Origin: Hypanus sabinus
Lineage: Eukaryota
Assembly (NCBI RefSeq): GCF_030144855.1
Contig: NW_026781490.1
Span: 124,001 to 188,000 of the forward strand
DNA: 64,000 nt
Direction: 5' to 3'
Under the pieces are notes generated by a model. It saw nothing but the letters and a program-made list of their open reading frames with translations, searched no databases and was not told the DNA's origin. The translations under genes were made by a program, and so were the position numbers. Each line of letters starts with the position of its first letter. Position 1 is the first letter of the stretch. Of the stretch, positions 3,363 through 42,965 are shown in pieces.

Positions 3363-3708
3363 GTGATAACAACGTATCTGGAAAATCAACAAGCAAAAAC
3401 AACAGAATGTAGTGCAATATTGGGAAAACCTTTGACAAAATTTATTTCAAGGCTTTAAAAAACTGTGGAACAGAGCTCTATGCTCAACAAATACAACAAA
3501 GGCAATAAACACTTCCATCAATACCGACATTGACTTTTTTTAATGAAAATATCTTAGTCCCATTTCAATCAGTAAATTTTACAAAGATAAGTAAGAACAG
3601 AAATGACAAGTTTAGAAAAGACTACTTACACTCAAACCCACCTAGATTAACACTTCCTTGGACAGAAGGAGGAAGAGGAATAACGCACATGAGAAAAAAT
3701 AATCACAT

Positions 3709-4020
3709 AAGACCATAAGACAAAGGAGCAGAGTTGGCCATTCGGCCCATCGAGTCTGCTGCACAATTTCATCATGAGTGGATCCAATCTGCCCTTCAGT
3801 CCCATTCCCCCACCTTCTCACCATAACCTTGGATGCCCTGACTACTCAGATACCTATCAATCTCTGCATTAAACACATCCAATGACTTGGCCTCCACTGC
3901 TGCCCGTGGCAACAAATTCCACAGATCCATCACCCTCTGACAAAAAAAATTCTCTGATTCTCTGTTCTGAATGGGTCCCCTGCAAACCACAAGTCATGCC
4001 CTCTTGTACTAGACTCCCCC
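3709..4020 (-). mobile_element. CR1 3' end
   Basis: ORF 3796-3990 has FFCQRVMDLWNLLP...FNAEIDRYL (CR1 ORF2 C-terminus), followed by a CR1-type 3'UTR and repeat tail. Confidence 0.85.
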
Positions 4021-4089
4021 AGTCACTCTCGAAATTGCATTCAGCAATGGGGATGCATTCAGCCTGCAGCTTATTGAAACTTTCTCCCC

Positions 4090-4508
4090 AATGTGAACCC
4101 GGTCATGTGTTACAAGGTTAGATTATTGAGTGAATCCCTTCCCATATTCACAACAGGTGAATGGCCCCTCCCCAGTGGAACATAATGATGCAGCCTTGGT
4201 GGAGACGGTTGAGAGAATCTCTCCCCAAAGTCTGAGCAGACGATCAGTGGTGTGAACTCGCTGGTGTTCTAATAGATGAGATGATCGTGTGAAAGCCTTC
4301 CCACATTCACAGGTCGACGGCCTTTCCCCAGTGGATCTCACTGGTGTGCCTGCAGATCAGATGACTGAGTGAATCCCTTCTCACTATCTGAGAGGGTGAA
4401 ATCCCTCTCTGCAGTGTGAACTGACTGGTGTGAAACTAGGTGAGATGATGTGGTGAATCCCTTCCCACAGTCTGAGCAGGTGAACAGCCTCTCCCCCGTG
4501 TGAACTCG
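4090..4508 (-). pseudogene. Finger repeats beyond the ZNF-A stop
   Basis: After TAG the frame continues [31 protein letters not shown], then decays into broken fingers. Confidence 0.8.
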
Positions 4509-5360
4509 CTAGTGACTCTGTAGGTTGAATGATCGAGTGAATCCTTTCCCACAGTCTGGGCAGGTGAACAGCTTCTCCCCAGTGTGAACTTGCTGGTGTC
4601 TCTGTAGGTTAGATGACTGAGTGAATCTCTTCCCACAGACTGAACAGATGTAATCCCTCACTGCAGTGTGAACTGACTGGTGAGTCACCAGGTGAGATGA
4701 TGTGGTGAATCGCTTCCCACAGTCTGAGCAGGTGAACGGCCGCTCCCCAGTGTGAACTAACTGGTGTGCTTGTAGGCTACCTAACTGTGTGAATCCCTTT
4801 CCACAGTCTGAGCAAGTGAACGGCTTCTCCCCAGTGTGAACTCGCTGGTGTGTCTGTAGGTTGGATGACTGAGTGAATGTCTTTCCACAGAATGAGCAGG
4901 TGAATGGCTTCTCCCCAGTGTGAACTGACTGGTGTCTCTGTAGGTGAGATGCCTGAGTGAATCCCTTCCCACAGTCTGAGCAAGTGAACAGCCACTCCCC
5001 AGTGTGAACTCGCTGGTGACTCTGTAGGTTGAATGATCGAGTGAATCCCTTCCCACAGTCTGAGCAGGTGAACAGCTTCTCTCCAGTGTGAACTTGCTGG
5101 TGTCTCTGTAGGTTAGATGACCGAGTGAATGTCTTCCCACAGACTGAGCAGGTGAAATCTCTCACTGCAGTGTGAACTGACTGGTGAATCAGTAGGTGAG
5201 ATGATGTGGTGAATCCCTTCCCACAGACTGAGCAGGTGAATGGCCTCTCCCCAGTGTGAACTCTCTGATGTACCTTCAGTTCAGATGACTGAGTGAATCC
5301 CTTCCCACAGTCCGAACAGGTAAACGGCCGCTCCCTGGTGAGAACTCGCTTGTGAGCCAT
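4509..5360 (-). CDS. ZNF-A: tandem C2H2 zinc-finger protein, about 283 aa, 9 full fingers plus a truncated 10th
   Basis: CxxCGKGF-x5-L-xx-H-xxx-H repeats with TGE(R/K)P-type linkers; ATG at 5360 (MAHKRV) aligns with the ZNF-B and ZNF-C starts; exon acceptor TTTTTACAG at 5760-5761. Confidence 0.85.
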
Positions 5361-6099
5361 TAGGACAGATGACCGAGTGAATCCTTCCCCCACAAATTCA
5401 ACAGATGACCAGCCTCTGCCCAGTGTGAACTGACTGGAGTGTCCACAGGTGGGAAGACTGACTGAATCCCTTCTCACACACAGCACAGGTGAATGGCCTT
5501 GCCAGTGTAAACTTGCTGACATACATTCAGTTGAAATGACTGACTGAATCCATTCCCACTGTCTGAGCAGATGAATGGTTTCCCCCCTGATTAGAATGAT
5601 GGACATGCCAGTAAGTCAGATGACAGAGTGAATCCCTCCCCACAGTTTGAGCAGAAAGGATGATCGAGTGAATCCCTTGCTCCATTTCTTAAATATCTGG
5701 ACAGAGACAGCAAAACTGTATTTGAGATTTCAGTAGACAAATTTCTTGTCATTTGTAACCTGTAAAAAGATTTTAAAAATCCATCAGTGGGTGTAGAATA
5801 ACATTTCAGATGAGATCACTTGAGTTGTCAAGGTATGATCTGACATCACACTGTTACAGTGAGGTTCAATCCAAGTTGGATGGAGAAATCATCTTCTAAC
5901 TGGGCAGAGTGCTGGTATCTGCAATGAGCATTGAATGCTCTGATGTTCTTCCTGTCTCTATAAGAATGGGGCATTTTTTCCATCTCCAATCTGTGACCTG
6001 CCTCAGTTTGACTCTCTCCATTGGCATTATTCCCTGTTCCCACTGAGCTGCATGGGTGCCTGGCCCCACAGTAACTGAAACACTCTCACACAAATAGCC

Positions 6100-7730
6100 A
6101 GCAGTGCATTCCACACACCCACCACTCTCTGTGTAAAAAACTTACCTCTGACATCCCCTCGGTATCTATTTCCAAGCACCTTAAAACTAATGTCCACTCG
6201 TGTTAGCCATTTCAGACCTGGGGAAAAAAAAACTCTGGCTATCCACACGATCAATGCCCCTCATCATCTTATACACCTGAAAACGGCTCGAAACATAAAC
6301 AAGGAAAGTGTACACTGGTTTGAGGATTTCTTAGAAGTACACAACATTATGAGGGTATAGATAGGATAAATGCAAGCAGCTTTTTCCACTGAGGTTGTGT
6401 GGGATGACAACCAGAGGTCATGGGTAAGTGGGGAAGGTGAAAATTTAATGGGAACATGTGGAAAAGCTCTTCACTGGTCATGACAGTGTGGAATGAGATG
6501 AATATAAGTAGTGAAAATCAGCTCAGTTTCACCAGTTAAAGGAAGCTTGGATGGGACCCTGGGTGGTAGGAGTATGGAGGGTGATGGTCCCGGTGCAGGT
6601 AGTTGCATTAGACTGCTTAAATGTTTTTTGGCATTGTCTAGATGGGCCAAATATCCTGGTTCTGGACTGAACTTCTCCATGTTTCTGTGATAGAGATGCT
6701 GGCCAAACTTGTTTGGAAGGGAAAAGGTAGGAGTGACAACGGAACAGCAATGGCTGGAGATTCTGGAGCAATTCGGGAGCTGAGTGATCGATACATCCCA
6801 ATGAAGTGGAAGCATTGGAAAGGCAGGAGGACATATCCGTGACTGAAATGAGAAGCCAAAGCCAACATAAAAGCCAAAGAGTGGGCAAACAAAAGAGCAA
6901 AGACTATTGGGAAGCTTTTAGAAACCAACAGCAGACAACTTTAAAAAAAAGCCACATGAGCTCAGGGTGTGGAGTCCTGATATTGTCATCATTAATGGGT
7001 CTTGGTAGCACCCAACAGTCTGAAGCATTTGGAGGAACAAAATATCCGGGGCCTCAATATCTCTTGAAAAGCAAGGTTCCCTGCACCTGTAACTTTTCAA
7101 CTTTTATTTTGGCAGGCACATACAAACCCCACACCCTCAAAATTTTACTTCTGAAGGCCTTCCACTTACAAGAACTGTGTTGCCAGGAACGAGCCTGTTC
7201 CAAACCACACTTGTCAGATGTTTCTGATACCATCAAAATTGATCTTTCTCCAATTTAGAATCTCAACCCATGGTCCAGACCTCTCTTTTTCCATATTTAC
7301 TTTGAATTTCATGGCATTATGAACACAAATTCTGTCACCAGCCCTGGATCATTTCCTAACAGCTTATTGTACACTTCTATATCAGAAATTCCACGTACTG
7401 ATTAAGGGCACATTTGACAAACTTTACCCCATCTAGTCCTTTTACAATATGGGAGTCCAGTCTATATATGTAAAGTTAGAATCACTTACTGAATCAACCT
7501 TTGTTTATTGGCATTGTCTGCAATCTCTCTACAAAGTTGTTCCTCTAAATCCCTCAGATTGTTGGGAGCAACCAAATTCCAATAATGGCTACAGTATCAT
7601 AATTCCCTGTCCTGAGCTCATCTGGCTTTCCTACGAGGCTTCTTGCATTATGATATACACAGCTCAGCACATTCATCGCACCATGCTCAACCATTTGATT
7701 GCTGACTCTATCTGAGGTCTGAACAACATC
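6100..7730. mobile_element. Mosaic of CR1 fragments in both orientations (ZNF-A intron)
   Basis: FFTQRVVGVWNAL at about 6105-6280 on - strand; CR1 3' end on + strand at 6340-6690; same mosaic duplicated at about 31150-32760. Confidence 0.75.
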
Positions 7731-7734
7731 TGAC

Positions 7735-8487
7735 TGGTGTCAAGATAACAAACTCTCCCACATTGTCACATAAACAAAGGAGCTGATTGTGGATTACAGG
7801 AGGACTGGAGACAGGCTAACCCCTGTTGACATCAATGGATCTGGGGTTAAGAAGGTGAACAGCTTTAAATTTGTCAGCATAAACATCACCAAGGATCTCA
7901 CATTGTCTGTACATACTGGCTGTGTTGTGAAAAGAGCACAGCAGCACCTCTTTCACCTCAGATAGTTGAAGAAGTTGGGGACGGGGACCCGAAATCCTAA
8001 GGACTTTCTACAGGGACACAATTGAGAGCATCCTGACTGGCTGCATCACTGCCTGGTATGGGAACTGTGCTTCCATTAATCGCAGGAAACTGCAGAGAGT
8101 GGTGCAGACACCCCAGCGCATCTGTAGATGTGAACTTTCCACTATTCAGGACATTTACAGGGACAAGTGTGTCAAAAGGCCCAAAGGATATCGGGGGCCA
8201 AATTCACCACAACCACAAACTGTTCCTGCTGCTACCATCCAGGAAACGGTACCACAGAAAAAGGACCAACAGGTTCTGGGTCATCATCTTCTACTAGGCC
8301 ATCAAACTGATTAATTCATGCTGATACAATTGCATTTCAATGTTATACTGACTGTCCTATGTACAAACTAACTATTATAAGTTACTATTAATTACACATT
8401 GCACATTTTGGTGAAGATGTAATGTAAAGATTTCTACTCCTCATGTGCAGCAAGGATGTATCGAATAAAGTCAATTCAATTCAATTC
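7735..8487 (+). mobile_element. Rex1/Babar-type LINE 3' fragment
   Basis: TKELIVDYRR...TIESILTGCITAWYGNC motifs; tail AATAAAGTCAATTCAATTCAATTCA. Confidence 0.75.
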
Positions 8488-8489
8488 AC

Positions 8490-8995
8490 CCTCTCCACTA
8501 TCTGTTCTGTCATTCTGGCTCCCATTTCCCCAGCAACTTATTTTAACCACATCACACTCTCCACCCACACTAGCACTAGCAAGCCTTACCACTAGGATAT
8601 CAGTCCCCTCCTGTTCTGTTCCCCTAACTAATGAATTTACTATCACCCCTTTGACTTTTCTCTGTCAGGTAATCTACCCTCCCCACCCCAACAGTTTCTA
8701 AAGTGTTCCACCTGTTGTTGTGTGGGATGACAACAAGAGTTCTCTGTGATGGCTATTTAACTTTATTCCGCTTCCTGACTCTCGCCCAGTTTTCTGTGTC
8801 CTGCACCTTGTGTGTAACTCACCTTTCTTCATGTCATATCTATCTCCTGCTCCAACTCCTGGATGATCCGGAATTCATCCATTTCCAGTTCCAACTCCTT
8901 AAAGTGCAGGGTTACAAGCTGCAGCTGGATGCACACCTTGTAGGTGGGGGCATAAGGGACACTGGAGGTCTCCCCACTTTCCCACAATGTCCCCC
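8490..8995 (-). mobile_element. CR1 ORF1 fragment
   Basis: LWESGETSSVP...CIQLQLVTLHFKELELEMDEFRIIQELEQEID resembles the CR1 ORF1 zinc-finger/leucine-zipper region; inverted paralog at about 45135-45560. Confidence 0.65.
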
Positions 8996-9337
8996 CTAAT
9001 TTGTAATGACCAGTGTGCACATAAATCATGTACCGTGCATTTTTTTGCCCAGTGACATGTGCACAGTGAATTTTATACAGAGAGGTAATCATTTTCACAG
9101 CGAGCAAATCACTGTCGATAAATACTTTGATATCCCCCGGGTTTGATGGAATTCATCTGCACTCTCACACAAACTATGTAGCAGGCCTGTAACGAGTAAT
9201 GAAGAATCATCTCACCAGAGCTTTTGCACATTGTTCATATGTGGTTTGCTTGCTAAATTATGCTTTAAAAAGTCAGGTTTGCAAAGATTACTCCAAGTCT
9301 TTCCACTTGCAAATTCTCCAGCACCTCTTGCATTGTC

Positions 9338-11128
9338 ACAATAGACAATAGGTGCAGAAGTAGACCATTCGGCCCCTCAAGTCTGCACCGCCATTCTGAG
9401 ATCATGGCTGATCATTCACTATCAATACCCAGTCCCTGCTTTGTCCCCATATCCCTTGATTCCCCTATCCATCAGATATCTATCTAGCTCCTTCTTGAAA
9501 GCATCCAGAGAATTGGCCTCCACCGTCTTTTGAGGCAGTGCATTCCAGACCCCCACAACTCTCTGGGAGAAGAAGTTTTTCCTTAACTCTGTCCTAAATG
9601 ACCTACCCCTAATTCTCAAACCATGCCCTCTGGTACTGGACTGTCCCAGCATCTGGAACATATTTCCTGCCTCTATCTTGTCCAATCCCTTAATAATCTT
9701 ATATGTTTCAATCAGATCCCCTCTCAATCTCCTCAATTCCAGCGTGTACAAGCCCAATCTCTCCAATCTCTCTGCGTAAGACAGCCCTGCCATCCCAGGA
9801 ATCAACCTAGTGAATCTACTCTGCACTTCCTCAATTGCCAGAATGTCCTTCCTTAAACCTGGAGACCAAAACTGTACACAATATTCCAGGTGTGGTCTCA
9901 CCAGGGCCATGTACAAATGCAAAAGGACATCCTTGCTCTTGTACTCAATTCCCCTTGTAATAAAGGCCAACATTCCATTTGCCCTCTTCACTGTCTGTTG
10001 CATTTTCTCATTCACCTTCATTGACCTACGAACTAGGACTCCTAGGTCTCTTTGCATTTCTCCTTTACCTAACTCTACACCGTTCAGACAATACTCTGCC
10101 CTCTTGTTCCTGCTTCCAAAGTGGATAACTTCACATTTGTTCGCATTGAATGACATCTGCCAAGTATCTGCCCACTCACACAGCCTATCCAAGTCTCCCT
10201 GTATTCTCCTAACGTCCTCTTCGCATGTCACACTGCCGCCCAGTTTAGTATCGTCAGCAAACTTGCTGATATAGTTTTCCATGCCCTCATCTAAATCGTT
10301 GACATAAATCGTAAAGAGCTGTGGTCCCAATACAGAGCCCTGTGGTACCCCACTAGTCACCTCCAGCCAGTCCGAGAAACACCCATTCACTGCTACCCTT
10401 TGCTTTCTATCTGCCAACCAGTTTTCTATCCATGTTGAAACCCTGCCCCCAATGCCATGAGCTCTGATTTCACTCACCAATCTCCTATGTGGCACCTTAT
10501 CGAATGCCTTCTGAAAATCTAGGTACACAACATCCACTGGCTTACCCTCGTCTAACATCCTTGTTACACCCTCAAAAAACTCCAACAGATTAGTCAAGCA
10601 TGATTTGCCCTTGGTAAATCCATGCTGGCTCAGCCTAATCCTATTACTGCCATCAAGATGTGCCACTATTTCATCCTTAATAATGGACTCAAGCATCTTC
10701 CCCACGACTGACGTTAGGCTAACAGGGCGATAGTTCTCCATTTTCTCCTTCCCTCCCTTCTTGAAAAGTGGGATAACATTAGCCACTCTCCAATCTTCAG
10801 GAACTGATCCTGAATCTAAGGAACATTGGAAAATGATTACCAATGCATCCACAATTTCCTGAGCCACCTCTTTTAGAACCCTCGGATGCAGACCATCTGG
10901 ACTCGGGGATTTATTAACCTTCAGTCCTACCAGTCTACTCATCACAGTTTCTTTCCTAATGTCAATCTGTCCCCTCTGATATTCCTCTGATATCTTATGA
11001 CCATGGCCCATCCATACATCTGGGAGATTGCTTGTGTCCTCCCTGGTGAAGATAGATCTAAAGTACGCATTAAATTCTGTTGCCATTTCCCTGTTTCCCA
11101 TAACAATTTCTCCCAATTCATTCTTCAA
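9338..11128 (-). mobile_element. Young 5'-truncated CR1 LINE with an open ORF2 reverse transcriptase (9422-11128, 568 aa)
   Basis: NYRPVSLTS, YLDFQKAFDKV, GVPQGSVLGP, FADD motifs; 3' tail reads (ACAATAG)2 on + at 9338-9351; no endonuclease domain. Confidence 0.95.
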
Positions 11129-11185
11129 TACACACAGGTAACACCAGTTTCTATATTGGACATAAATATTTCCCCTGAACCCTCC

Positions 11186-11811
11186 TGAGGAATTGAGGAT
11201 ATATAAAAAAAAACCTATGTAACCTATGTAATCTCTGGCTAAAAGAATAATTGGGACTAAATATGAATATTTGAACCAAAGTAAACACTGTCTTCAGTGG
11301 TTAGCTAAGGCAGGCTCATTGCCAGTTCTCTGTGGCTTGCAGAGAGACACACTGAGAGCTGATAACATTGTATACTGTACCGTTGTTAGTTGATACCATT
11401 ATACATTCTACCCTCATTTGAGTAAGGGGCGGAGGACTCACTGATAAGGACAGGAATGAACATCTGTTTGTAATTAAGTCAGGGCTTTGCAAAGGGAATA
11501 AGTGGACAGTACATCCATCCATAATTAAAACCTCAATATAACAAACTCTGTTATCTAAGTAATTAAGATTTGCAGCAACACACTTGGTGGGCATACCAGT
11601 TCAAATAACATCTTGAAATAGTGATGCATGGGGTGTACTGTGTATAAATATACGGCTGTAACCTAAGTCAGTCGACTTGTCAGATAGTGGAAGTGCTTAC
11701 GTGCCTTCCCTGTGACAACTGGGGCTCAAACTCCTGCAGGAGAATGTGCAATAAACTGTGGTGTCGATAAGAAGCTTGTATCTCAAGTTTTATTCAGATT
11801 CAGCTTTAACA
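11186..11811 (+). mobile_element. ERV-B 5' LTR
   Basis: TG...CA ends; TATAAATA near 11643; AATAAA at 11750; PBS directly downstream; starts where homology to 44770 and 61945 stops. Confidence 0.75.
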
Positions 11812-11813
11812 TT

Positions 11814-11831
11814 TGGCATCATGATCAGGAT
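11814..11831 (+). promoter_or_regulatory. Primer-binding site, tRNA-Ser(CGA)-like
   Basis: TGGCATCATGATCAGGAT matches 15/18 to TGGCGTCACGAACAGGAT (recalled vertebrate tRNA-Ser-CGA 3' complement); two of the three differences are CpG transitions. Confidence 0.65.
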
Positions 11832-12039
11832 CTCTATCTACAGAGCACTGAGAAGATGGGCTGAGTAAGCAGCTGAACCACTCTGGGGACTGTGGGGACT
11901 GACCGGGAGCCCAATAGGTATTTTAAATTTGTCGCTCACTGTTAGTTCCTTTGGATGTATGGTGCCTTGCCCAAGGCTGATCACATACCTTGACAGGATC
12001 GGGAAAAAAATCTGTCGGGAGACTAGTATAAGGTAGGCA

Positions 12040-12192
12040 AAAATTTTACCAAGTGGGCAGGAGGCAGTATTGGATAAAGTTTACTAAGTGGCCAGGAGGC
12101 GGTACTGGGTAAACTTTACTAAGTGGGCAGGAAGTAGACATGTCAGGTAAATTCATCAATTGAGCAGGAGGTGCCTGCTGGGTAAATTTATC
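12040..12192 (+). repeat. About four copies of a 36-39 bp tandem repeat in the ERV-B leader
   Basis: Recurring AAAnTTTACTAAGTGGGCAGGAGGCnGTAnTGGGT unit. Confidence 0.8.
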
Positions 12193-12259
12193 TGATTGTT
12201 AATTGAGCTGGAGGCTTTGTGCCTGATAAATTACTTAGAGATAATCGGTTAATTGCAGT

Positions 12260-13120
12260 CGATTGATACGAGTGTGCCAGGAGCAGCCCGACACAATTTT
12301 GTGTGAGAGTTTTCTGGACAAGGAAAATGATTTTCAAATGTTCAGTGCAGCACTGAGTAAGAAATTGGGGAACAAAATGTGGCCTCGGATGGGTGGGGGG
12401 GGGAGCCTGGGTTATTACCTCATGAGAACAAGCAGTAAATCTGATATGGAAAAAGAACTGAGGAAAGAAGTGGAAATCGTTGAAAAGGAAATGGAAGGAA
12501 AAGGCAGATGTAAAATGGAAGTTTGCCAGCTATGCCACTGATGGCCTACTGGCTTCAGAATTGGACTTTGAGGCGAGAGGTCTCGAGTTCGAATCCAGCT
12601 GACTCCCTTGCACACTTTCATCCGTGCTGGGTTAGAGCTGGTGATCTCTTAAACAAAACAACTCACCCAGCAGAAGGCAATGGCAAACTACTGCTGTAAC
12701 TTGCCTTGTACATGATTTCCCAACACCGCACAGCGGCGTGGAAGGAAATCCTCGGCTAACTGGAAAAAGCTCCGGATGTGACATACGTTTAAAGTGGAAC
12801 AGTATATTATCAGCAAGTTGGAGGAATAATGGAATGGGATAGAGGTATGTACTGCAGAAGGAATTCCAAAGGTTGGGAGCCGCTAAAAGTGGAGCGTGAA
12901 TGGCTGGATGTGACTTGTGGCCTGCTACGGCAGTTTCACAGGAGACCAAGCCTTTAAACTGGGGGGACAAATACCCATTATTAATGACTTACTGCTCCAA
13001 TGCTTACCAACTAAGTTAGCCAACATTATTAATACAAATAATATGGATTGGCCTGACAATGACCGAAATCGAATGTGACGTGCTTCGACATATTTTTGGG
13101 ACCCAACTTTCGAATCCCGA
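12260..13120 (+). pseudogene. gag: ERV-B gag remnant, interrupted by a SINE
   Basis: Lies after PBS and leader; matrix-like WP..G.GS motif; QCLPTKLANIINTNNMDWPD resembles a capsid C-terminus; similarity is weak. Confidence 0.45.
12535..12790 (+). mobile_element. tRNA-derived SINE, same family as 1523-1768
   Basis: B box GAGTTCGAATCC; GAAGGCAATGGCAAACTACTGCTGTAAC body. Confidence 0.8.
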
Positions 13121-13124
13121 TCAA

Positions 13125-14109
13125 CCCCGAAGGAAACTAATATTCTCCTGTTTGATTCTTACTAAGAGAGAGAGGGGGGCAGAACTATTTGACTATGCAG
13201 CATGTTTACACTTGTTCACAGCTTGTGTTTATATAGCTCACAGTTTGTTTTATTTAAGCAAGGACAGTCACAAACACAGTCAGCCAGAGAGAAAGAAAGA
13301 AGATGGAAGGTTCGAAACAAAGGGCCTAGTGGCCAAAGGCCACTGTTTGGACTCTCCTATGCCCACAAGGTGTGTTGACTATTGATCCAGCGTGTACTGA
13401 ATGTGTGATTGTCACTTTGATCCATAGGAGTGGATCTGTTGGTTTGGGAGTATCCTGTGAAGACCACTTGTGCTAACCCTTGCCTGGGCGTGGTAATTCA
13501 CTTGAAGAGGTACCCTTGTGACCAATCACTGTTGGTGATAATTCGTATAATCCATATGGGGATGTTGTTGGAGTATCTCGCGGCTACCACTTTTGTTAAC
13601 CCTTAGCCGGATTCGGGTGTGTTATGTGGTAACCACTTGTGAGAAGGGATATTCTGTGGAAATCACTGTCGGTAATACTTTGTGTGTTGGATCTGGATTG
13701 GGAGTACCTTGTGGAATCTACCTGTGCGTCAACCCTTGCTTGTGTGGTAGTTCCTTCTGAAGACAGTACGCCTGTGATAAGCTGCTTCTGGTGATAATTT
13801 GTATGTAGATTTAGAACGACGACGGATAGAACCTACAGCGACTGTTAACCTGTCATTTATTCCATGGCTGAACTGAACTTTCATAGTTCACCATCTCAAG
13901 ACTTTAAGCTTGGTATTCCCTGAGCTCAAAGGTTTGGGAGTTATATTTACACGTATGTGTACTCATAACACTTTTTAACTTTTGATTATTTTGCTTAATT
14001 TGTTATATTATAAGTAGATACGAATAAAGAGAGTGGTTTTAACATCAAAACCAGACTCCAGGTGTGGTCTATAGCTGCTGGTTCATTTAAACCAATTGGG
14101 TACGTAACA
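13125..14109 (+). mobile_element. Gypsy-type LTR with damaged 5' end and an internal triplication
   Basis: Ends CGTAACA; AATAAA near 14023; homologous to 50710-51976 and, inverted, to 38580-39334. Confidence 0.8.
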
Positions 14110-14900
14110 GTGCTGCTCGTGTTTATGTCTTTAAGAGGGCTCACCCCAGCGCCCAGGGGCCCCCATGTTAACACCTTTCTGTCTCTCTGTCACACCTATG
14201 CCAAGCAGGTAGAACCAGGGGCCTGCTGGGTTTGTGCTGAAATTCCTCGGTATGATAAAAGTATGATTCAAATGTCAGTAATCCTGCTCAACTAGAGTGA
14301 GGAACTATCTGCCTGGGCTTTTTCAAATAACACCCGGGGAAGAGAGTGAGGAACTGTGGTCCAGTCTGTGATGACCGTGGCTGTCAGTGTTTTGAGGGAT
14401 GGTGTCTCAGGGCCCCACCAAACGGAACTTCCTATGCTGGGAAACATGAATCCTGGCCATATCTGCAGGAGCCCAGCAGCCGAGAGGAATAACTGAGACT
14501 GAGCGATTTTTGATGATAGTTTTTCTCTCCTATGGAGTAGCCAGAAATTCATGAGGGATAATCAATTTGGCTATAAGAACTTCAGGAGCTGGCCACAAGG
14601 CTGCAGGGGCCCTGTGACAGAAACACAGGCCCAAGTAACAGAAACATCCATTGAAATGATTGCAATCTGGCAAACAGTCGTACAGAATCGTACGACTTTA
14701 GATTTTATCCCAGCTGATAAAGGGGGAACCTGTGCTATTATTGACACAGAATGCTGCACCTGCATCCCTGATGAGTCTACTAACGTTACATCCCTCTCCG
14801 AGCACACTGCAAAGGAGTGACAGCATCAAGAAAGTAGGGCAGGATTTACACGGGTTCACCAAAGGGTTGAAATGGTGATCTTCAAAGGACTGTAAGGTAA
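14110..14900 (+). pseudogene. env: ERV env remnant, gamma-type
   Basis: SU CWVC motif; TM QNRTTLDFIPADKGGTCAIIDTECC (immunosuppressive domain plus CX6CC); stops and frameshifts. Confidence 0.9.
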
Positions 14901-15067
14901 TATGTGGGGCAAAGTCCTAATCCTATGTCCTAAAAGTTGTACATATCATTGTTATAATTACTGATGTATGTTGTTTTTCCCCACTGAGAAGTCAAAGCTG
15001 TACTCAGTTGCTTTCTCTGTAAAAAAGTTACTGCTTTGTTGATCATGTAATGATCTAAAGAAAGGAA

Positions 15068-15373
15068 TGATAAAGTATGTAAAAGGGTTAGCACTTGGTT
15101 AAACTATAACAGCCTGTTTTTCTGAAAGAAACTGCTGATGATCAACAGATGTACTAAGCCATGCTGAGCCATATTTCTTTTTGAGGGTAGCGAGCTACGG
15201 TTTCAGGATGCTTATCTCCTTGTGCACTCATGTGTAGAGATAGGACAGCGTCAGTCTGTTCTGTGTGTGTGAGCCATTATGACTATTTTGTAATTTGTCT
15301 TTAGGGGCTGTCACAGTAAATAACTTTGGCTCCATCCGGTCTTGTGTGGGGGAGTATCTGGACAGATACATCT
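15068..15373 (+). mobile_element. ERV-A 3' LTR
   Basis: Follows polypurine tract AAAGAAAGGAA; paralog of 36036-36351. Confidence 0.7.
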
Positions 15374-15691
15374 AATGTGTAAGGGGAATTGGTGGATAGG
15401 GTGGGAGCTTTCACAGTCTGTTCCTGTCTGAGTGACTAACTGAGTAAGCCCCGGGTGCTTGGAACAAAGAGTTTGTACTTTATCCGGATTCGACTTCCAC
15501 TGAATGGGAGTGGTTTTAAAGGGCTGGGCTGCTGGAAGCACATTACCAGACCGGGACTGATTGCAACTGGGTCTGACAGAAGCATAACTGGTTCTTCTGG
15601 GGACATTCAGTCTCACTCCAGCTATTTCCTACCTTCCCTTGTACAGGTACGTAATGTCCAAAGGACGTGTTTATGAGTAAATGAGACTCAC

Positions 15692-15868
15692 CAAACTTTC
15701 TCCTGACTGAATCACTGGGAAATCTGAGTCTCTTGATGAAAAGTTGTTCTCTCCAGTTGCTGTTCTCAGTCCTCGGGCCAATTCACTTGTTGCTGTTCCC
15801 TAGTCTTCAGCTGTGGTTTGCTTCCAGTGGGGGTTTTTCTTCAAATAAACTTCTCACCGCATGTCTAA
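15692..15868 (-). other. Putative non-coding exon 2 of ZNF-A
   Basis: AAG/ acceptor and TTG/GTGAGT donor conserved in the paralog at 36685-36852. Confidence 0.5.
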
Positions 15869-16079
15869 CTTTAACCAGAGAGATAATGAAGTATGTTAAC
15901 ATTAAAAAGGAGAACCAAACATTTCTGCTCAATGTTACTAAGAACAAAACTCACTGAAATTTAAATGATGAATGCAGATATAATGATCTCAGTGAACAAT
16001 CTTTTATTGTCCCTCACACATCACAAAATGATATGGGATAAGAAGGAGCCATCATTCAGTCAGGAACAGAATTATGTGA

Positions 16080-16550
16080 TTTGATCCATCTAGTCCGCCC
16101 TACCATTTACCATGGCTGATTTTTATTCCAACACCATGTTCCTGCCTTCCTCCCGTAATCCTGAGCTACTCACCAATCATGAATATATTAATTTGTGTCA
16201 TAAATATACAAAATGGCAGCCTCAACCAACCTCTGCGGCAACAAATTCCACAGATCAGACATCTCTTAGCCAAAAAATTCTTCTCATCTCAGTTTTAAAG
16301 GGAAGCATCTTCATTCTGAGACAGTGCTGTCAGATCACAGACTCTGCGTCTAATGGAAACATCCTCTCCATGTCCACTGTATCCAGGCTTTTCAGCATTC
16401 GGAAGGTTTGCTTAACCATACATCCCCCCACCACCCCCACCGTCCCTCTGAACTCCATTGAGCACAGGTTCAGAACCATCAAATGCTCCTCATACATAAC
16501 ATCGATTATTCCTGAGATTATTTTTGTAAACCATGTTAGCAGCAATTGTA
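16080..16550 (-). mobile_element. CR1 3' fragment
   Basis: KQTFRMLKSLDTVDMERMFPL; paralog at about 37085-37525. Confidence 0.75.
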
Positions 16551-18522
16551 CTGAACACATTTCCAGGAATAAGAGATAAATTGATACCAGGATAATTTAC
16601 AGGGTAAGTTGAGATTTCTTTATTTTTCTACTAGCACAGAATGTGCCATTTCCATTTCCAGGTTAATTTCAGGAAATATAAACCATTCCAAGGTAAATGT
16701 AATAAAAAGAAACTAGAATTATCAGAAATTCTCAGCAGGTAAGGAACAGCTTTGGGAGAGGAACAAACTTTACAATTCAGGGTAATAATGTTTTGTCAGA
16801 ATGACTTCAAGCATTTTCAGTTTTTATTGCAGATCTCCAGCAACTTGGGATTCTGCCTGATTTCCACCGAGTGACAGACAGAAGACAGTGAGGGGGGGAT
16901 TTCGAAGAACAGTTTGAACACCAAACTCAGGGTCTATCTCTACTGTTGTAAACACGGAACAGCCCATTTACTCACAGCCTCTCCCTGTGAGGATGGAATG
17001 GGAACATCCTCTCCTCAGACTGGCAGTCATTGCTTCCAAAGGAATTCCAGAAACAAACATCTGATCCCAGACCAGAAATACTCACTCAACACCTCACAAG
17101 CCCAAGCAGCTCAATCCCTGGGTCCACTTTACCTGGATCAAAAACTGATATCTCAGGACCCAACATCACAGGCTCACACAGCTTAATCTGCCACTCACCG
17201 ACCCTGAGAGTCTCACACTTTGTTCCCACATCTCACACTGGGTAGTTTAATCCAGGATTTCCCCACAACCAATGTCCAGCTGCTCGAAGAAGGACATCCA
17301 TCCAGCCCCTTCTGTAGAAGCACTAACCAAAGTCAAATCCAAAACACCGACAGTTCCATATGGCTGGAACACTGATCACAGGACTAGAGCCAAACAAAAC
17401 CCTCCCAGTACTCTTTGCTGACTGTAATATGATGAAGTGTGTCAGGCAGTCACAGTTCACAAAATAGCACTCCCACACCAATGCACAACAGAACTGGTAC
17501 CTGATGAACCTCTGGTTTTCCAGCTGACAAGAACTGATTCTGGAAATAACTCAGCGAGGCCGAAGGTGTAAAAGAATACCTCACAATGAAGACAAGAATG
17601 ATTGCCGATATATATCATTGAAGAGGTGTGATACAGGGTGGACCAAGGTTGACCCAGATGGTTGATGCATGTCACTGATGTTGGTGGGAGAGAGACTGGA
17701 CAGAGGTTGAACAAGATGGGCAGGGAATGAGCAGATAGAATGAGGTGGAGAAGAAATCAAGGACGATCAATTATGGTTCTCCAGCAATACACAGATACTG
17801 AATTAATAGTACTCACTACTGTATAAAGGATCTTAAAATGACAAAGTTAGAACAAACAACAAGAACTTTGCCATATATACTTTGAACCCTCACCAAATTG
17901 TTATCAACACACCATAGAAAGTTTCCCATTCAGACACTTCATGCTTTTCATGGTAACTGCTCTGCCCGTGACTGCGAGGAACAGCAGAGACCTTTGGTCC
18001 AGATCAGCACTTCACAGAAACCATTCTCACACTAGACTTCCCAGTCCCTCAGGAAAGCAGGTAGTGAAATCAAAGATCCCTACAACCTGGGGCATTCTCC
18101 TTCCTCACCCACCAGCCAAAAAGCTCAAAGACAAATGCGAGGAGGCTCAGGAAGTGAGACAAGTTGGGGGAAGTTAACGGGACTCAGTGGCCAACATCAG
18201 ATTCCCCAACACAACATGGAGGAAGCATCACCTCACATCCGGGGACTCTGACCGCACACCACATGATCTTGAGTCACAAACCAGAGGGCGGGGTAGATCT
18301 GTGTTAAACAGCCTCATGTGACCTGTTGGTGGGTCTCCCATTTCAACTCTGTGGAAATAAACTGCCTGGGCTCCTGGTTTGGATCGTTCAATGCAGATTG
18401 AGTGACATCTACTTATTTTTGAAGAGCCCAGATAATTGGAAAATAAATGAGTAATTGGCCCTCAGTTCAGCACTCATGGCTAACATTGGATCTCCCCACT
18501 CGGGATCGGTCTCAATACTCAC

Positions 18523-18735
18523 TGATGGGAAAACGATATCTTCGGCCCGCAGACTGTGATCTGATCCCGGGCTTCCTGACCTAGGAGGGGAGGACCCTTT
18601 CCCAATCCCGCAGACAATCCGCTTCAGTACTGAGCAGAAAGGAAAACACCACCCAACCGGAGACAGTGAGCATGCGCGAAGAGTTAGTTACATCTGTGGA
18701 TAAATGGGAGGGGCAAACAGGATCACGTGACTGGT
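18523..18735 (-). promoter_or_regulatory. Putative ZNF-A promoter and exon 1
   Basis: Donor GTGAGTATTG (GT at 18522-18521), NRF1-like GAGCATGCGCG (about 18669), E-box ATCACGTGAC (about 18722); same order at 21284-21535 and 37810-38065. Confidence 0.6.
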
Positions 18736-19014
18736 GGGGTCCCCCCCCCCCCCAGGCAGAGAGTCCAGCTACCCACCACTTCTGTGGAAAGAGACAAACT
18801 TGCCGCTCAGATCTCCTCTCACCTTAAATGTATTAGACATTTCAACCCCCAGGAAAAATATATTATCTGTCCACACAGATTCATAATCAGGTTTATTATC
18901 ACTGGCGTGTGGTGTAAACTTTGTTAACTTTGCAGCAGCATTTCAATGCATGACATAATATAGAAGAAAAAGAAAACACAAAATAAAATAATAAGAATTA
19001 CAGTATATGTATAT

Positions 19015-21215: not shown

Positions 21216-21283
21216 GAGTTCAGGAAAGTTAACTCACTACCCAACGTCAGAACTCCCCGATCGGAACTGGCTTCAATACTCAC

Positions 21284-21945
21284 CGAAGGAAAATTGTTGG
21301 TGTTGCCCCGCAGAGAATAATCCGTCTCCGGCTCCCCGTCCAAGGGGGCGAGAACCTACTCCCCATCCCGATCTCACCACCGACCCGGTTTCACAAAGAA
21401 CGAAAAAACAGCACTGCCAAGCCCGGGAATGTGAGCATGCGCAATGTGCTAATTGCGTCATCAGGCGGTGGGCGGGGCCTCGGAAACAAACCCGAAGATG
21501 CTTCCGATCTGCGGTAAAACGGGATCACGTGACGAGTGGAGGGTCTCTCAAGTCACCCGTTGACTGTTCCTCGCCCTTCACACCCTGCCCTTCCCACCGC
21601 CGCATTTTCCACATTATTTTATTATTTCCCTATATTATTTCCAAATTTAAACCAGATACGTATTTAGTTTTTCCCACCATATCTTCCCCGGTCCCGTTCC
21701 CTCCAGCCCCAAGTCACAGAGCGCTCAGAGTTAGAGTTTCGATTCCCATCCCAGTCAGAAACTGAACTCAGACCCAAACCGGAAGTGTGCAGGTTTCATT
21801 TAAATCAGTCTATGTCAGTAAACACTAATTTCTATTCACATTCCTCCGGCCTCACTGATCAGGAACACTGAATCATTAAGTGAGAAACAGCAGCAGGAGG
21901 CCATTCAGCCCTTCTAACCATCAACAAAATGGCGGCTGCTCTCCC
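21284..21945. promoter_or_regulatory. CpG-rich promoter with a third copy of the minus-strand exon 1, possibly bidirectional
   Basis: Donor at 21283-21278, GAGCATGCGCA, GGGCGGGG, ATCACGTGAC, ETS ACCGGAAGTG (about 21779), YY1 AAAATGGCGGC (about 21926). Confidence 0.6.
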
Positions 21946-22359
21946 TTCTTAGCCACAAACTTCTGCCCGATCCTCTTTTCCTCGATTCCCCTCGGTCTCC
22001 ACACATCTGCTTTTCTCTGTTTTATGTGAGGACGATCACTGAGTCTTCACCACCCTCTGTGGTGCGGATTTACAAACATTCACCACCCTCAGAGTGGAGA
22101 CATTTCCCCTCATCTCAGTCCCGGACAGTCCATCCCTGTTTCAGAGACTGGGATCCCTGGTTCAACCGGTAATGATGTTGTGCATTTCAATGTGTTCACC
22201 TTTCAGTCCTCGCTTCTCTAAATGAAAGGGTTATCACATTTGATCGTTCTTCATATGATGACCCCACCACTCCAGGGATTAGTCTGGTGCAGCTTCATTG
22301 CACGCTTTATAACAAATACTCTCTAACCTCTCTGTTCATCCTCTGTGGAATTAATTTCC

Positions 22360-22610
22360 ATCTTCTGCAGCACCGTGTTGGTCCAACCACTTACTTCCCA
22401 CCCTTGTCACTATTTCCACCATCCCACCTCCCCCCTCACCTGGATCCACCTCTCACTCCCCGGCTCTTGCCTCATCCCCACCCCTCTCCTCTTTTCTCTG
22501 ACTATTTCCCGTCTACTCTCAGTCCAGAGGGAGGGTCTCGGCCCGAAATGTTGACGGTCCATTTCCCTCCACAGATGCTGCCCGACCCACTAAGTTCCTC
22601 AGGCAGCGTC
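22360..22610 (+). mobile_element. Penelope-like 3' end with a decayed hammerhead at 22520-22556
   Basis: AGTCCAGAGGGAGGGTCTCGGCCCGAAATGTTGAC; paralog at about 55545-55735. Confidence 0.7.
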
Positions 22611-22739
22611 TTTGTATCCTGGTAAACTGACAGCCTGACAATGTGGACCATGGATACCCCTTCCTCTAAAAGTCATCGAATCACTCAGACGGCTAATCGC
22701 TGACAGGAATTATATTTGTTGGTCATTACATTCCAGCTG

Positions 22740-23070
22740 GATGGAGTTGATGGGGAGTTCGGCGTGTCCCCGTGAAACAGCCGAACGGCCGAGCTCTCTG
22801 CACTGTCCCTCCGGCTCCGGCCAGTGGTGGCGCTGTGGGGACCACCGGCCAGTGTCTTGAGCAGAGGGAGACGCGCAGGCGCGCTGCCGACACTAAGCCT
22901 CGCAACTCCGAGCGGCGGTGAGCCGGGGCCGATGTCGGGTTTGTGTAAATCGGGGGCCGGTAGCAGTGAGAAAGGGCCTGGCCCAAGCTCTGTCGGGTGG
23001 CTGTGGGCTCCAGGCACTCCTCAGCCCCGGTTTTAACTTTGCGACCGAGCCCGGGCTGTGGGATCAATTC
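22740..23070. promoter_or_regulatory. CpG-island-like segment
   Basis: Visibly GC- and CpG-rich; GCGCAGGCGCG NRF1-like site; partly paralogous to 56850-56900 and 57520-57600. Confidence 0.45.
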
Positions 23071-25811
23071 CTTGTGGTTCTCCAAGGGGTGAAGGGGATC
23101 TGTCCGTGTGTGTGGGTAGAGGTTATCAGTGGAGCGTGGGAGTGGGGTTGTAAGCGTGTTGGGTTCTGTTGCGAGAAAGTGGGATGATTGGACATTCCGT
23201 GATAGAGGGAGGAGGGTACCAAGACAAACTAAGTTGTAAACGAGGGATGATCTGGTGAACTGGATCAGACAGCTTAGCTCGCGTGTCCTTTCAGGAAACA
23301 ACTCTCTCTTCATATTAATGACTGTCTAAGCTTGCTGTTCACAAGATTATGAGTTACAAGATTGTGTGTTACAGAGCCCCAGAGTCCAGGACAGCTGTCT
23401 CCGTCATGGGCTGCGAGTGCAGATTGGGAAGGGGGAGGGTGTGTCAGTGACACGGGTTTCTACATCCTCCTGTGAGGTATAAATGTCCTTACAGTGAATT
23501 CTGATATGCTGGCATATCGGGAGTCTGAAAGGGAAAGGGAATCAGTAAGGGGCTCAGGACAGAGTTTTAACAGAAGAACATGTTCAGGGGTAAAGGGGTA
23601 CAGGAGCTGTCTAATAGATCATTTTATTTATTTATTTTTTGTTTGTGTGAACTCACAGAAGGTGACTGAGGAAGAAGCTTGTTGAAGGAGGATACCCAGA
23701 GGCGAGCAGGTCAGGCACAGAATCAGGAATTGAATTGAATTGACTTTATTTCATACATTCATGAGGAGTATGTCTCCATCTAAATGTGCAAAGTGCAATC
23801 ATAGTAATTTATAAGAGTTTATAATAATTAAAACAGACAATGTAATATAGAGTACATTCAAGTCAGCGTCAGTTCATCAGTCTGATGGCCTGGTGAAAGA
23901 AGCTGTCCCAGAGCCTGTTGGTCCTGGCTTTTATGCTGTTATGATGGTAGCAGCTGGAATAGAGTGACAGAGATGTGATTTCCTATGTCACGGGTATAGA
24001 CAGTCGTCTCAAGTGAGGAGTTTGTGTGGAGATGCAGCTTCCCTGGAGGTGGAGGAAAGAGGACACACCAACAGGTGGAACCAGCTGTGGGAAGACATGG
24101 TTTGTCAGGTCTGACGATGAGCTGAATGTACCATAACCTTCAGACTGAATCAGAAAACCATTCCGAGGGTATTTGAAATGTCAGAAGCAGGGGAGATGTG
24201 ATCACATATGCAGAGAGCAGGGTTTGTGTCTACAGAACCTCAGTGAGATGGATCAAGTGCAGGGTTGAAAGCACAGTGTTTGATGCGGGATTTAATCACT
24301 GATTGTGACACTGTGAGAGGGTTAGTTTTGCTGTAAGGCAGCAACATTAATGGAAGACACAGGAACTTCATCAATTGCCAGTTATTTAGCAAAAGTGACC
24401 AATCTCAATGCGACCTTGACAGAAACAGATACTTCCAATGGTGACAAAGGGGTTCAGTATGGATTATTTTAGGTTGGAGAGGGGTGTGGAGTTTTGCAAT
24501 CAATGCCTTGCGGTGCCACCATCGTTAATTGAGCATGTCCGGAGTGGTGGATCAAACAGCACGGAAACAGGCCTTTGGTCGGCCATACCTGTTCTGACCA
24601 TCCACTCACTGTCTACACTGGTCCCATTTATCAGCACTTGGTTCACAGCCGACTGTATCTCGGCAGTTTCAATGCTCATCCTCTTCGTAAATGTTGTGAA
24701 GGGACCTGCCTCCACCACCACCTCGGGCAGTGAGTTCCAGATTTCAGCTACCCTCTGAGTGAGAAATCTCCTCCTCAGATCCCTCCGAACCACTTCATCC
24801 TCTGCTTAAATCCATGCCCTCTGATCGGTGACATCTCTGTCCCAGGATCGTGGCCGATATGGGCATCAGTGAGTTCTTTCATACGGTTCAGCATGGTAAG
24901 TTGCTGTCGAAAGTTAGATCACACGGGGTCCAGGGAGAGCTGGTTAACTGGATGCACAGTTGTCTTGATGGTAGGAAGCAGAGAGTGATGGTAGGAGGCT
25001 GTTTATTGGACTCGAGGCCCGAGCCCAATGAGGTTCCTCAGGGTTACACCCCATTGCTCTCATTATTCATTGATATTTAATTATATTTGGATTTGCATAG
25101 TTGGTTGAATTCTGTGCTCTACTTGATCTTTCATCGATCATGTTACTATTCTAAAGATTTGCTAAGTATTCTTGTAGGAAAAGATATCTCATGGTTTTAT
25201 GTGGTATCTGACTATATAAAAGTTATGTACTCTGATAATAAAATTTACTTTGAACATCAACCATTGCTACTTGTCATCTGGATCAGTAATCTGGTTAAGA
25301 ATATACAGGATATGGAGAGTAGGTTTGCAGCAAGTTAAAACGATTAATTTTTCTCAAAAAATATTAAGTATAAACACTCCGCTCTGTTTCCCTCTCCACA
25401 TTCAACCACCCCTCCCTTTACTGTCTTCCCTCTCTGCCCCGTCCACTCTCTCGTCCTGACATTTCACATAAGTTCCGTGTGAAAGTGAATTATTTTCAGG
25501 GAATCTGAAGGGGAATTCTTCACTTTGGTGAAGAGGTTGGTGAGAGTATGGAATGAGCTGCCAGTGGAAGTGGAGGATGTGGGTTTGATTTAGACACTAA
25601 AGAGGGATTTGGGTGAGGACATGGGTGGGAGGTGTATGGAGGCTCTGATGCAGGTAGCTGGAAATGGGCAGTAACAACAAAAACAGGTCAGCATTGACTA
25701 GAAGGGCTGATAGGCCTGTTTCATTGCTGCTTGGCTCTGTGATTCTAATAATATTGTGGTTTGTAATTTCCACAGTTAGTACATTGCTACTAATGTCCGA
25801 ACCCAGAAATT

Positions 25812-28399: not shown

Positions 28400-28814
28400 T
28401 GTAACACACTGTAAGGTTTCACTGCTAATGTAATGACCTCTCTGTAATGTTTCACTGCTGAGGTAGTGGTTTCTCTGCAGCAGCAATGTTTAGGATACAA
28501 CTAGAGATAACAGGGTTTTGTAGTGCTGGGCTATCCAATGACAGAAATGTTCTTTCTTGTGAGTCTGAATGAGAGAATTTCATGGGCTTTTGTTGTGGAG
28601 AGATGAGAAGCCACAAATGGGGAGAGTGGGCCCTTTTTTTTACTTTACTAACCATATAGTCAAAGTAAGAATTATGAATCACATCTTGTGTACTGTTTGT
28701 TATTTTGGGGTATTGATTTGTAACAGGGGACGCGGCGCAGCATCCACACACATTTGGCCGAGCTAGGGGGCTATCACCCCCTATATTAAGCTGCTAGCCG
28801 GAGTGAGAGTTACA
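28400..28814. mobile_element. Solo LTR in the ZNF-B 3' UTR
   Basis: TGTAAC...GTTACA with perfect TAAG TSD (28396-99 and 28815-18); empty paralogous site near 4100-4125. Confidence 0.9.
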
Positions 28815-28848
28815 TAAGGTTAGATGACTGAGTGAATACATTCCCACA

Positions 28849-30411
28849 TTAACAGGAGGTTAACGGCCTCTCTCCAGTGTGAACTAACTGGTGTGTCAGT
28901 AGGCGAGATGACCGAGTGAATCCCTTCCCACAGTCTGAGCAGGTGAATGGCCTCTCACCTGTGTGAATTCGCTCATGTACCTTCAATTGAGATGATTGAG
29001 TGAATCCCTTCCCACAGAATATGCAGGTGAACGGCCTCTTCCCAGTGTGAACTGACTGGTGTGCTTGTAGGCCAGCTAACTGTGTGAATCCCTTCCCACA
29101 GTCTGAGCAGGTGAATGGCCTCTCCCCAGTGTGTACTCGCTGATGTACCTTCAATTGAGATGACCGAGTGAATCCCTTCCCACAGTCTGAGCAGTTGAAT
29201 GGCCTCTCCCCAGTGTGAACTAAGTGGTGTGCTTGTAGAGTAGCTAACTGAGTGAATCCCTTCCCACAGTCTGAGCAAGTGAACGGCCTCTCCCCAGTGT
29301 GAACTCGCTGATGGACTTTCAGTTGAGATGACGAAGTGAATCCCTTCCCACAGTCCAAGCAGGTGAATGGCCTCTCCCCAGTGTGAACTCGCTGATGTAC
29401 CTTCAGTTGAGATGACCGAGTGAATCCCTTCCCACAGTCTGAGCAGGTGAATGGCCACTCTCCAGTGTGAACTGACTGGTGTGTCAGTAGGCAAGATGAT
29501 AGAGTGAATCCCTTCCCACAGACTGAGCAGGTGAATGGCCTCTCGCCAGTGTGAACTGAATGGTGTGCTTGCAGGCTAGATAACTGTGTGAATCCCTTAC
29601 CACAGTCTGAGCAGTTGAACGGCCTCTCGCCAGTGTGAACTGACTGGTGTGCTTGCAGGCCAGATAACTGTGTGAATCCCTTCCCACAGTCTGAGCAGGT
29701 GAACGGCCTCTCCCCAGTGTGAACTCGCTGATGTACCTTCAGTTGAGATGACAAAGTGAAACCCTTCCCACAGTTTGAGCAGGTGAATGGCCTCTCTCCA
29801 GAGTGAACTGACTGATGTACCTTCAGTTGAGATGACCGAATGAACCCCTTCCCACATTCTAAGCAGTTGAACGGCCACTCTCCAGTGTGAACTGACTGGT
29901 GTGCTTGTAGGTTAGCTAACTGTGTGAATCCCTTCCCACAGTCTGAGCAGGTGAATGGCCTCTCCCCAGTGTGAACTAGCTGATGTACTTTCAGTTTAGA
30001 TGATGAATTGAATCCCTTCCCACAGTCTAAGCAAGAGAACGGCCTCTCCCCAGTGTGAACTGACTGGTGTGCTTGTAGGTTAGCTAACTGTGTGAATCCC
30101 TTTCCACAGTCTGAGCAGTTGAACGGCCTCTCCCCAGTGTGAACTCGCTGATGTACCTTCAGTTGAGATGACGAAGTGAATCCCTTCCCACAGTCTGAGC
30201 AGGTGAACGGCCTCTCCCCAGTGTGAACAGACTGGTGTGCTTGTAGGCCAGCTAATTGTGTGAATCCCTTCCCACAGTCTGAGCAGGTGAATGGCCTCTC
30301 TCCAGTGTGAATTCGCTGATGTATCTTCAGTTGGGATGAGTAGGTGAATCCCTTCCCACATTCCGAGCAGGTGAACGGCCTCTCCTCAGTGTGAACTCGC
30401 TGGTGATCCAT
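28849..30411 (-). CDS. ZNF-B: tandem C2H2 zinc-finger protein, 520 aa, 18 fingers
   Basis: 18 uninterrupted 28-aa finger units; exon acceptor TTTTTACAG at 30814-30815. Confidence 0.92.
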
Positions 30412-30529
30412 GAAGTCAGATGACCGAGTGAATCCTTCCCCACAAATTCAGCAGATGACCAGCCTCTGCCCAGTGTGAACTGACTGGTGTGTCCACAGGT
30501 GGGAAGACGACTGAATCCCTTCTCACTCA

Positions 30530-30664
<135 letters not shown>

Positions 30665-42887: not shown

Positions 42888-42965
<78 letters not shown>

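Follow-up and report, generated by a model that had tools for sequence, protein, structure and literature searches.

The stretch analyzed here, a 64,000-nucleotide window of the Hypanus sabinus genome (NCBI RefSeq assembly GCF_030144855.1, contig NW_026781490.1, positions 124,001 to 188,000), covers a C2H2 zinc-finger gene cluster comprising the genes A, B, and C, the decayed copies D and E, and the promoters F and G. An intron of gene A (ZNF-A) holds a unit that resembles a provirus of an endogenous retrovirus (ERV). Our main finding is that this unit is, on balance, probably the remnant of an old fusion between two ERVs, X and Y, which is common to A and B and was trimmed separately in each. 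Two families of long terminal repeats (LTRs), two types of flank, empty sites in C and F, and separate deletions in A and B are directly visible. LTRs and flanks are discordant together, the combination that identifies a chimeric ERV scar, and the unit does not look like a single provirus: its LTRs are unlike each other, and its right flank departs from C and F. Because LTRs and flanks are both mismatched, the unit appears to have been rearranged after insertion. Contigs from four of 21 sequencing runs, each from a different study (X1, X5, X6, and X21), were placed on the window at 80% likeness; the contig evidence given below consists of the 32 pieces (of 208,924) and the 15 joints (of 1126) shown. 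The parts of the unit, its left flank, and the corresponding junction in gene B are as follows, in window positions.

7740..8487, plus strand: fragment of a long interspersed nuclear element (LINE), which we take to be Rex1/RTE-like (no Pfam match); an insertion common to A, B (first 72 bp), and C (3′ part), from alignments across both ends
8488..9343: host intron shared with C and F (A-C identity 85%; A-F identity 80 to 83% on the shared parts)
9341..11127, minus strand: LINE, presumably CR1-like (RVT_1, E 1.1e-31)
11128..11190: host intron ending where ERV X inserted (81% to C 44833-44775; 94% to F 62001-61938)
11186-11811, plus strand: 5′ LTR of ERV X (LTR X), left edge uncertain (11186-11227), with a CA end and then a TGG motif
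11812..13099, plus strand: primer-site-like motif, leader, and broken gag of ERV X, consisting of a short start, a short interspersed nuclear element (SINE, 12538-12790), and a capsid C-terminal part
13100..13165: A-specific deletion junction between gag and a truncated LTR (LTR W); gag homology stops at 13099 and W similarity starts at 13130-13165
13130..14109, plus strand: 5′-truncated LTR W, of another family (74 to 82% to 50742-51352, 38575-39028, and 43139-43346)
14110..14156, plus strand: 47-bp "leader" resembling a 5′-truncated env signal peptide, with weak homology to B 35092-35130
14157..15067, plus strand: env remnant and purine tract of ERV Y, 87.8% to B, broken and equally short in A and B
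15068-15373, plus strand: 3′ LTR of ERV Y (LTR Y), common to B 36036-36351 (89% identity)
15378..15501, plus strand: short LTR-like element Z, 4 bp past the end of LTR Y and shared with B, where it has a TG start and AATAAA
32851..32852: B-specific junction between LINE and pol of ERV Y, from alignment

The first-pass annotation of this DNA had seen no similarity between the two LTRs of the unit, and alignment bears this out. Aligned locally, LTR X and LTR Y score 27, compared with 24.3 ± 3.0 for shuffled sequences (58 of 300 shuffles reached 27 or more), so the pair does not align as one family; as a control, the score for the 3′ LTR of A against that of B is 448. Comparison of LTR X with the reverse strand, with the 3′ LTR of B, and with longer 3′ regions gave nothing above chance, and no match to it was found elsewhere in the window on either strand (best tile, 40). 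Each is read as a true LTR in place, because LTR X has the CA end, TGG motif, leader, and gag expected behind a 5′ LTR, while LTR Y follows env and a purine tract that directly precedes it. In B, LTR Y also carries a short terminal inverted repeat. The left edge of LTR X is placed with uncertainty because the match between A and F continues to 11190. Judged by sequence, LTR X and LTR Y are members of different families.

The flanks are as discordant as the LTRs. As first proposed, the intron of A left of the unit is paralogous to the C intron in the same transcriptional sense: 8134-9333 and 11128-11185 match it, ending at C 44775, about 650 bp from the C exon-1 donor at 44126. F has the same empty site at 61938, and C and F both lack an LTR there, with exon-1 donors 620 to 650 bp further on. 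An uninterrupted insertion would continue into such a C/F module, and the right flank of ZNF-A does not. It is instead of B type, again as the first-pass annotation had it: A matches B at 81 to 85%, with no collinear match to the C or F modules. When the right side of A was compared with the C and F 5′ modules (32 comparisons, 40 shuffles each), 5 of the 32, all outside the promoters, scored slightly above all 40 shuffles; these matches are short or weak (best score, 45.5). The promoter swap is seen in homologous gene bodies (A, B, and C) combined with nonhomologous 5′ modules, those of A and B being unalignable to those of C and F. Within the left flank, the CR1-like LINE (9341-11127) has an open frame of about 570 codons and is therefore much younger than the ERV remains; a joint at 9321-11126 in run X1 corresponds to the insertion-free state. 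In X5 and X6, the C-type intron bins have a greater summed depth of contigs (23,661-49,026) than do LTR X and the exon-1 bin of the A/B type (3,474-5,494); such depth does not measure copy number and was given no weight.

Inside the unit, the visible break in A lies at 13100-13165, since gag reaches 13099 and is followed by the foreign, truncated LTR W, whose similarity starts about 200 bp into its relative at 42368. This junction, which had gone unnoticed in the first-pass annotation, cost ZNF-A the whole of pol, together with the terminal part of gag and the beginning of env. Two other placements were rejected, as gag homology runs past the relevant points to 13099: a start of LTR W at 13074, and a leader that represents gag resuming after a clean solo-LTR insertion. 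LTR W is presumably gypsy-type, to judge from its relatives in the window. One member of the W LTR group, at 51880-53700, has an LTR end (51977) and a primer-site-like motif; the gypsy-type interior behind them is broken and includes an rve integrase. One X5 contig passes from a point near the end of LTR W directly into the start of LTR Y (14049-15106; side of 25 letters), either by chance or as a deletion variant.

The label gag is based on layout, on the position after LTR and leader, and on apparent capsid motifs; PDB and Pfam searches did not confirm the capsid label. A protein search over 1.84 billion representatives returned four matches, two of which (P0001 and P0002) were rejected as gag relatives because they are repeat artifacts. 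The other two, P0003 and P0004, align to 12866-13099 at 44 to 48% identity (E to 5e-16), and the C-terminal end of P0004 carries one zinc knuckle. Pfam gave no match in the four gag pieces; in PDB, P0004 matched zinc knuckles only and no capsid, and the remaining PDB matches were to integrase only. A single ESM Atlas hit, at 0.79, was left out of account. The SINE within gag is 84% identical to 1527-1763 of the window, and SINE-free joints occur in run X5. A diverged contig (X5 record 19) spans the end of LTR X and the leader behind it. The env remnant matches TLV_coat at E 8.6e-05, just under the curated cutoff.

Gene B has a deletion of its own. Its segment 32852-35050 contains RNase_H, rve, and MLVIN_C (E 2.6e-11) domains: what survives in B is the end of the reverse transcriptase (RT), RNase H, integrase, and the beginning of env; nothing is left of the sequence from LINE base 72 (32851) to pol. 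No RVT match was found in B 32850-35100, and the RT core is missing from both copies. Class I features, namely an integrase C terminus of the murine leukemia virus (MLV) type and a gamma-type env, were found for ERV Y only. Since the LINE insertion at 7740..8487 is common to A, B, and C, the intron of B was once C-type as well, and B is without such an intron solely owing to the 32851/32852 junction. A and B share the short env, LTR Y, element Z, and the flank. No polyprotein linking gag and pol was present among 308 candidates, and among 8000 in a second search the single match was a helicase, through its zinc knuckle. A protein search with the env start gave no candidate, and no related locus was found in viral and metagenome contigs.

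These observations can be arranged as follows. ERV X, which is class I-like, would have entered intron 1 of a zinc-finger gene in antisense orientation; this gene would have had a C/F-type promoter about 650 bp further on. ERV Y would have sat beside a different 5′ module, comprising exon 2, exon 1, and a promoter of the A/B/G type. The stretch separating X from Y, old promoter included, would then have been lost by deletion or ectopic recombination, placing the gene body under the new 5′ module, such that the ancestor of A and B already had the 5′ part of X and the pol-env-LTR part of Y in line. Later, A would have kept LTR X and gag and lost pol through the gag/LTR W deletion, and B would have lost the intron, LTR X, and gag through the LINE/pol deletion; both junctions are seen, and their order is our reconstruction. 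The X-to-Y switch would then have been erased in both copies, its site falling in the interval bounded by the last gag sequence of A and the first pol sequence of B. In another version, the switches would be the two deletions themselves.

Several observations weigh against this arrangement. No intact copy of the ERV X or Y family was found in the protein, viral, and metagenome searches, so that the case for two families is that of the LTRs and flanks. Comparison of target sites is affected by the uncertain left edge, and A and B disagree in the 4 bases that follow LTR Y on the right. The polarity of the promoter change comes from C and F only, with A, C, and F nearly equidistant. Divergence in the leader of env exceeds the 12 to 14% background (binomial P of 0.0004 to 0.002, for a region chosen post hoc and without correction). 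Run X1, which provides splice joints discussed below, is recorded as "DNA?" and its contigs may come from other paralogs; among the joints shown there is none between exon 1 and exon 2.

The first-pass annotation had placed the recombination within env, at the PHVNTF motif, and had described the leaders of A and B as unrelated. Similarity of the A env to B does start in this region (BLAST start, 14161/35135), but the leaders are weakly homologous: 26 of 39 aligned bases agree, with 8 gap columns, and 12 of 1500 random positions are as good. Similarly poor windows account for 2.2% of the A/B alignment on the right side (5 runs within 2.4 kb); on the left side they account for 0.7%, in 1 run. 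Diverged contigs cross the join between leader and env in three of the four runs (X1 13916-14296, with 43 other letters and 8 gaps; X21 13979-14227, with 28 other letters; and X5 14126-14399, with 44 other letters and a reach of 31 letters left of the join), and no X6 contig does so among the pieces shown. As their carriers are 84 to 89% like A, these are other copies, either gene paralogs or free elements, and the join dates from roughly the time when A and B split. At positions 14113 and 14116, the majority of covering contigs differ from A and carry the B letter, so part of the A/B gap in the leader is drift in A itself. A crossover at 14157 is, from these comparisons, not needed to account for the leader. 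Of the earlier proposal of recombination between ERVs, the joining of two ERV insertions with different host flanks stands, and the crossover at PHVNTF is poorly supported.

A crossover between related X and Y env genes at PHVNTF could still have produced A, with the leader as the signal peptide of X, with W and the gag/W deletion inside X, and with B formed separately. Identity to B rises from 67% in the leader to 88% in env at 14157, the leader is in frame with env in A, and the signal peptide of a related family could show weak homology of the kind observed. We nevertheless hold this to be unlikely: equally low windows occur without any junction (14877-14936, 15717, and elsewhere), the two positions just named put part of the gap down to drift, an unrelated LTR insertion lies within 50 bp of where the crossover would have to be, and a join this old, present in diverged copies, is no event private to A. 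A nested arrangement appears distinctly unlikely. Here, Y would have inserted into X (or its pol), and the rest of X would have been lost, along with the C-type promoter, in a separate deletion starting where LTR Y ends or at Z, which puts the promoter change at 15373-15501, outside the ERV interior. Z does start 4 bp after LTR Y without a clear target-site repeat, and nested ERVs and LINEs occur all over the window, but one extra event is required and no X or C-type remnant was detected right of LTR Y. It is improbable that a single ERV family normally has this interior and that one LTR was replaced later, with the flank change due to unrelated cluster turnover. The gag of X (through its single-knuckle relative) and the pol of Y (through MLVIN_C) are both compatible with class I, so the proteins do not separate them; gene conversion, however, requires homology, of which the LTRs have none, and the flanks change at the same unit. 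A weak further point is that no joint between LTR Y and the X leader, or between env and LTR X, is present among those shown. An assembly chimera is very improbable, even in a repeat-rich cluster in which no contig shown spans the entire stretch and both 11185/11186 and 13100-13130 lack a bridging contig among the 32 pieces. A and B each have the body joined to Y and the A/B 5′ module, diverged contigs bridge LTR X to its leader and W through the leader to env, and X1 joins exon 2 to the finger side.

The 5′ module, the gene bodies, and the remaining members of the cluster are located as follows.

4082..5759, minus strand: ZNF-A finger exon, with 11 zf-C2H2 stretches (E 6.8e-82); its acceptor at 5759/5760 is a CT..AC joint in run X1
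6146..6217, minus strand: small exon candidate within a repeat, with CT..AC joints on both sides (one X1 contig each) and AG and GT in A and B
15692..15865, minus strand: exon 2 of the A/B-type 5′ module, with its donor at 15691 in X1 joints and its acceptor from sequence only
16545..18254: segment present in A and missing in B, with no match elsewhere in the window
18523..18735, minus strand: exon 1 and promoter candidate of the A/B type (81% to B 37542-37990; 69% to G 21232-21478)
21232-21515, same sense as A: G, an orphan A/B-type exon 1 with its promoter
about 28809-30815, minus strand: gene B
near 40449-41300 and near 58954-59800: decayed zinc-finger copies D and E, respectively
about 49170-50720, plus strand: gene C
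near 61300, plus strand: promoter F, whose gene leaves the window

X1 contigs contain joints with CT..AC ends at 5759-6146 and 6217-15692 (one contig each) and at 5718-15690 (four contigs). Such joints are what splicing of exon 2 to the finger exon would leave, but the contigs may derive from other paralogs; no joint from exon 2 to the finger side was found in X5, X6, or X21 among those shown. Exon 2 has stops in all three frames and no Pfam match, and apparently is noncoding. The ZNF-A reading frame opens inside the finger exon, with stops on both sides of the main finger run. Because exon 2 looks noncoding and the frame opens in the finger exon, the swap would alter the promoter and untranslated exons and leave the protein unchanged. 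No KRAB-coding exon was detected by Pfam in the three frames of ZNF-A exon 2, which was the 5′ exon scanned. The A promoter (18450-18800) has a CpG observed/expected ratio of 0.46, compared with 0.85 to 0.96 in B (0.85), C, F, and G, and this loss of CpG may reflect lower activity. G, which is 69 to 70% identical to A and B, lies 2.7 kb upstream of the A promoter and is cut off near 20886; it could act as an upstream promoter of A.

With respect to the gene bodies, nonfinger DNA identity is 87.3% for A-B, 88.5% for A-C, and 86.4% for B-C (each ±3%). Private sites in A, B, and C number 23, 29, and 23 in 432 columns and 6, 8, and 12 in a further 112; for A, C, and F, they number 30, 31, and 36 in 386 columns. 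By these counts, the bodies of A, B, and C are equidistant, and a five-taxon tree built from 300 host bases left the three unresolved, with one internal branch at 77. Over 4083-7813 (BLAST), A is collinear with B but not with C, and the A/B collinearity runs from the fingers on to 20885/39747. A-B identity is 87.1 ± 1.4% left of the ERV unit and 85.7 ± 1.4% right of it. Given this equal divergence on either side and the extended collinearity, A and B are best seen as copies of one unit. The first-pass annotation had joined a ZNF-C-type body to a B-type module in A, a view that is not supported, as the three bodies are equidistant and B shows the identical promoter switch. Its incongruent histories of 5′ module and body are real but belong one level up, as the bodies of A, B, and C are about 13% diverged, whereas the A/B and C/F modules are unalignable.

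Other rearrangements were observed around these genes. The C intron (46092-46750) lacks A 6317-8134 in collinear form, and A 7046-7219 and 7604-7735 match C in inverted orientation. A duplicated block (40013-45077 and 58520-63880) pairs a C-type promoter with a decayed zinc-finger gene in head-to-head orientation; 40013-40790 and 58520-59296 are 91.5% alike, perhaps through conversion, and the remainder of the block is 72 to 87% alike. A second duplicated promoter-side block (21517-22808 and 54787-56907) has no finger exon near it, and CpG-rich, promoter-like stretches lie near 22800-23100 and 56200-56450.

The 5′ module does change at the unit, but the statement that intronic ERVs drive promoter and exon shuffling goes back to one ancestral case. 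As a claim about the whole cluster it is not supported: the B junction is between LINE and pol, and the swapped exons look noncoding. As one old event, the locus illustrates a mechanism and does not measure its rate. We consider it possible, if doubtful, that the ERV-ERV fusion founded a KRAB-less zinc-finger subfamily with a new promoter, which was amplified together with the scar and kept across related species. If so, rearrangements at intronic retroelements would be a recurring means of rewiring zinc-finger gene expression outside tetrapods.

A partial literature search, covering main texts, found no report of a promoter change at such a scar or of such clusters in cartilaginous fish; the main text of PMC10547256 has nothing on cartilaginous fish. 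Shark ERVs are reported in PMC4422223. The elements here resemble class I (gamma/epsilon-like) ERVs in RNase H, the integrase core, the MLV-type integrase C terminus, a TLV_coat-like env, and a one-knuckle gag relative, a likeness at the level of domains. The discordant-LTR rule is reportedly owed to Hughes and Coffin (2001/2005). In work on a gibbon SERV-K/MER11 case (PMC11379458), discordant LTRs with mismatched target-site repeats mark recombination between elements, a rule that PMC6407205 repeats. As in that case, the ZNF-A unit has LTRs of different origin and flanks from different places; unlike it, where the LTRs are of one family and cluster apart, the LTRs here are unalignable and the interior is mostly deleted. 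No reciprocal product of recombination was found.

The closest parallel is provided by young mouse KRAB zinc-finger clusters, where, as the main text reports, chimeric ERVs and LINEs lie as recombination scars at boundaries and recombination between unlike ERVs is modeled as occurring at microhomology (Bruno et al. 2025, PMC12575710). In the mouse work, as presented in the main texts, ERVs are proposed to fuel zinc-finger cluster turnover via ectopic recombination, and the frequency of such events is asked (PMC12575710, PMC13709654). Both systems are segmentally duplicated zinc-finger clusters with chimeric ERV scars, but here no KRAB exon was found, the host, to judge by its repeats, is probably a cartilaginous fish, the copies are 12 to 15% diverged, and the scar coincides with a promoter change; the word "promoter" is absent from the main text of PMC12575710. 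The ZNF-A locus is a case outside the mouse setting, with empty-site paralogs as controls, and its outcome would be a new promoter on an old gene body, beyond a change in copy number. By analogy, the ZNF-A scar would work like the scars of the mouse clusters, with the promoter change as a new detail.

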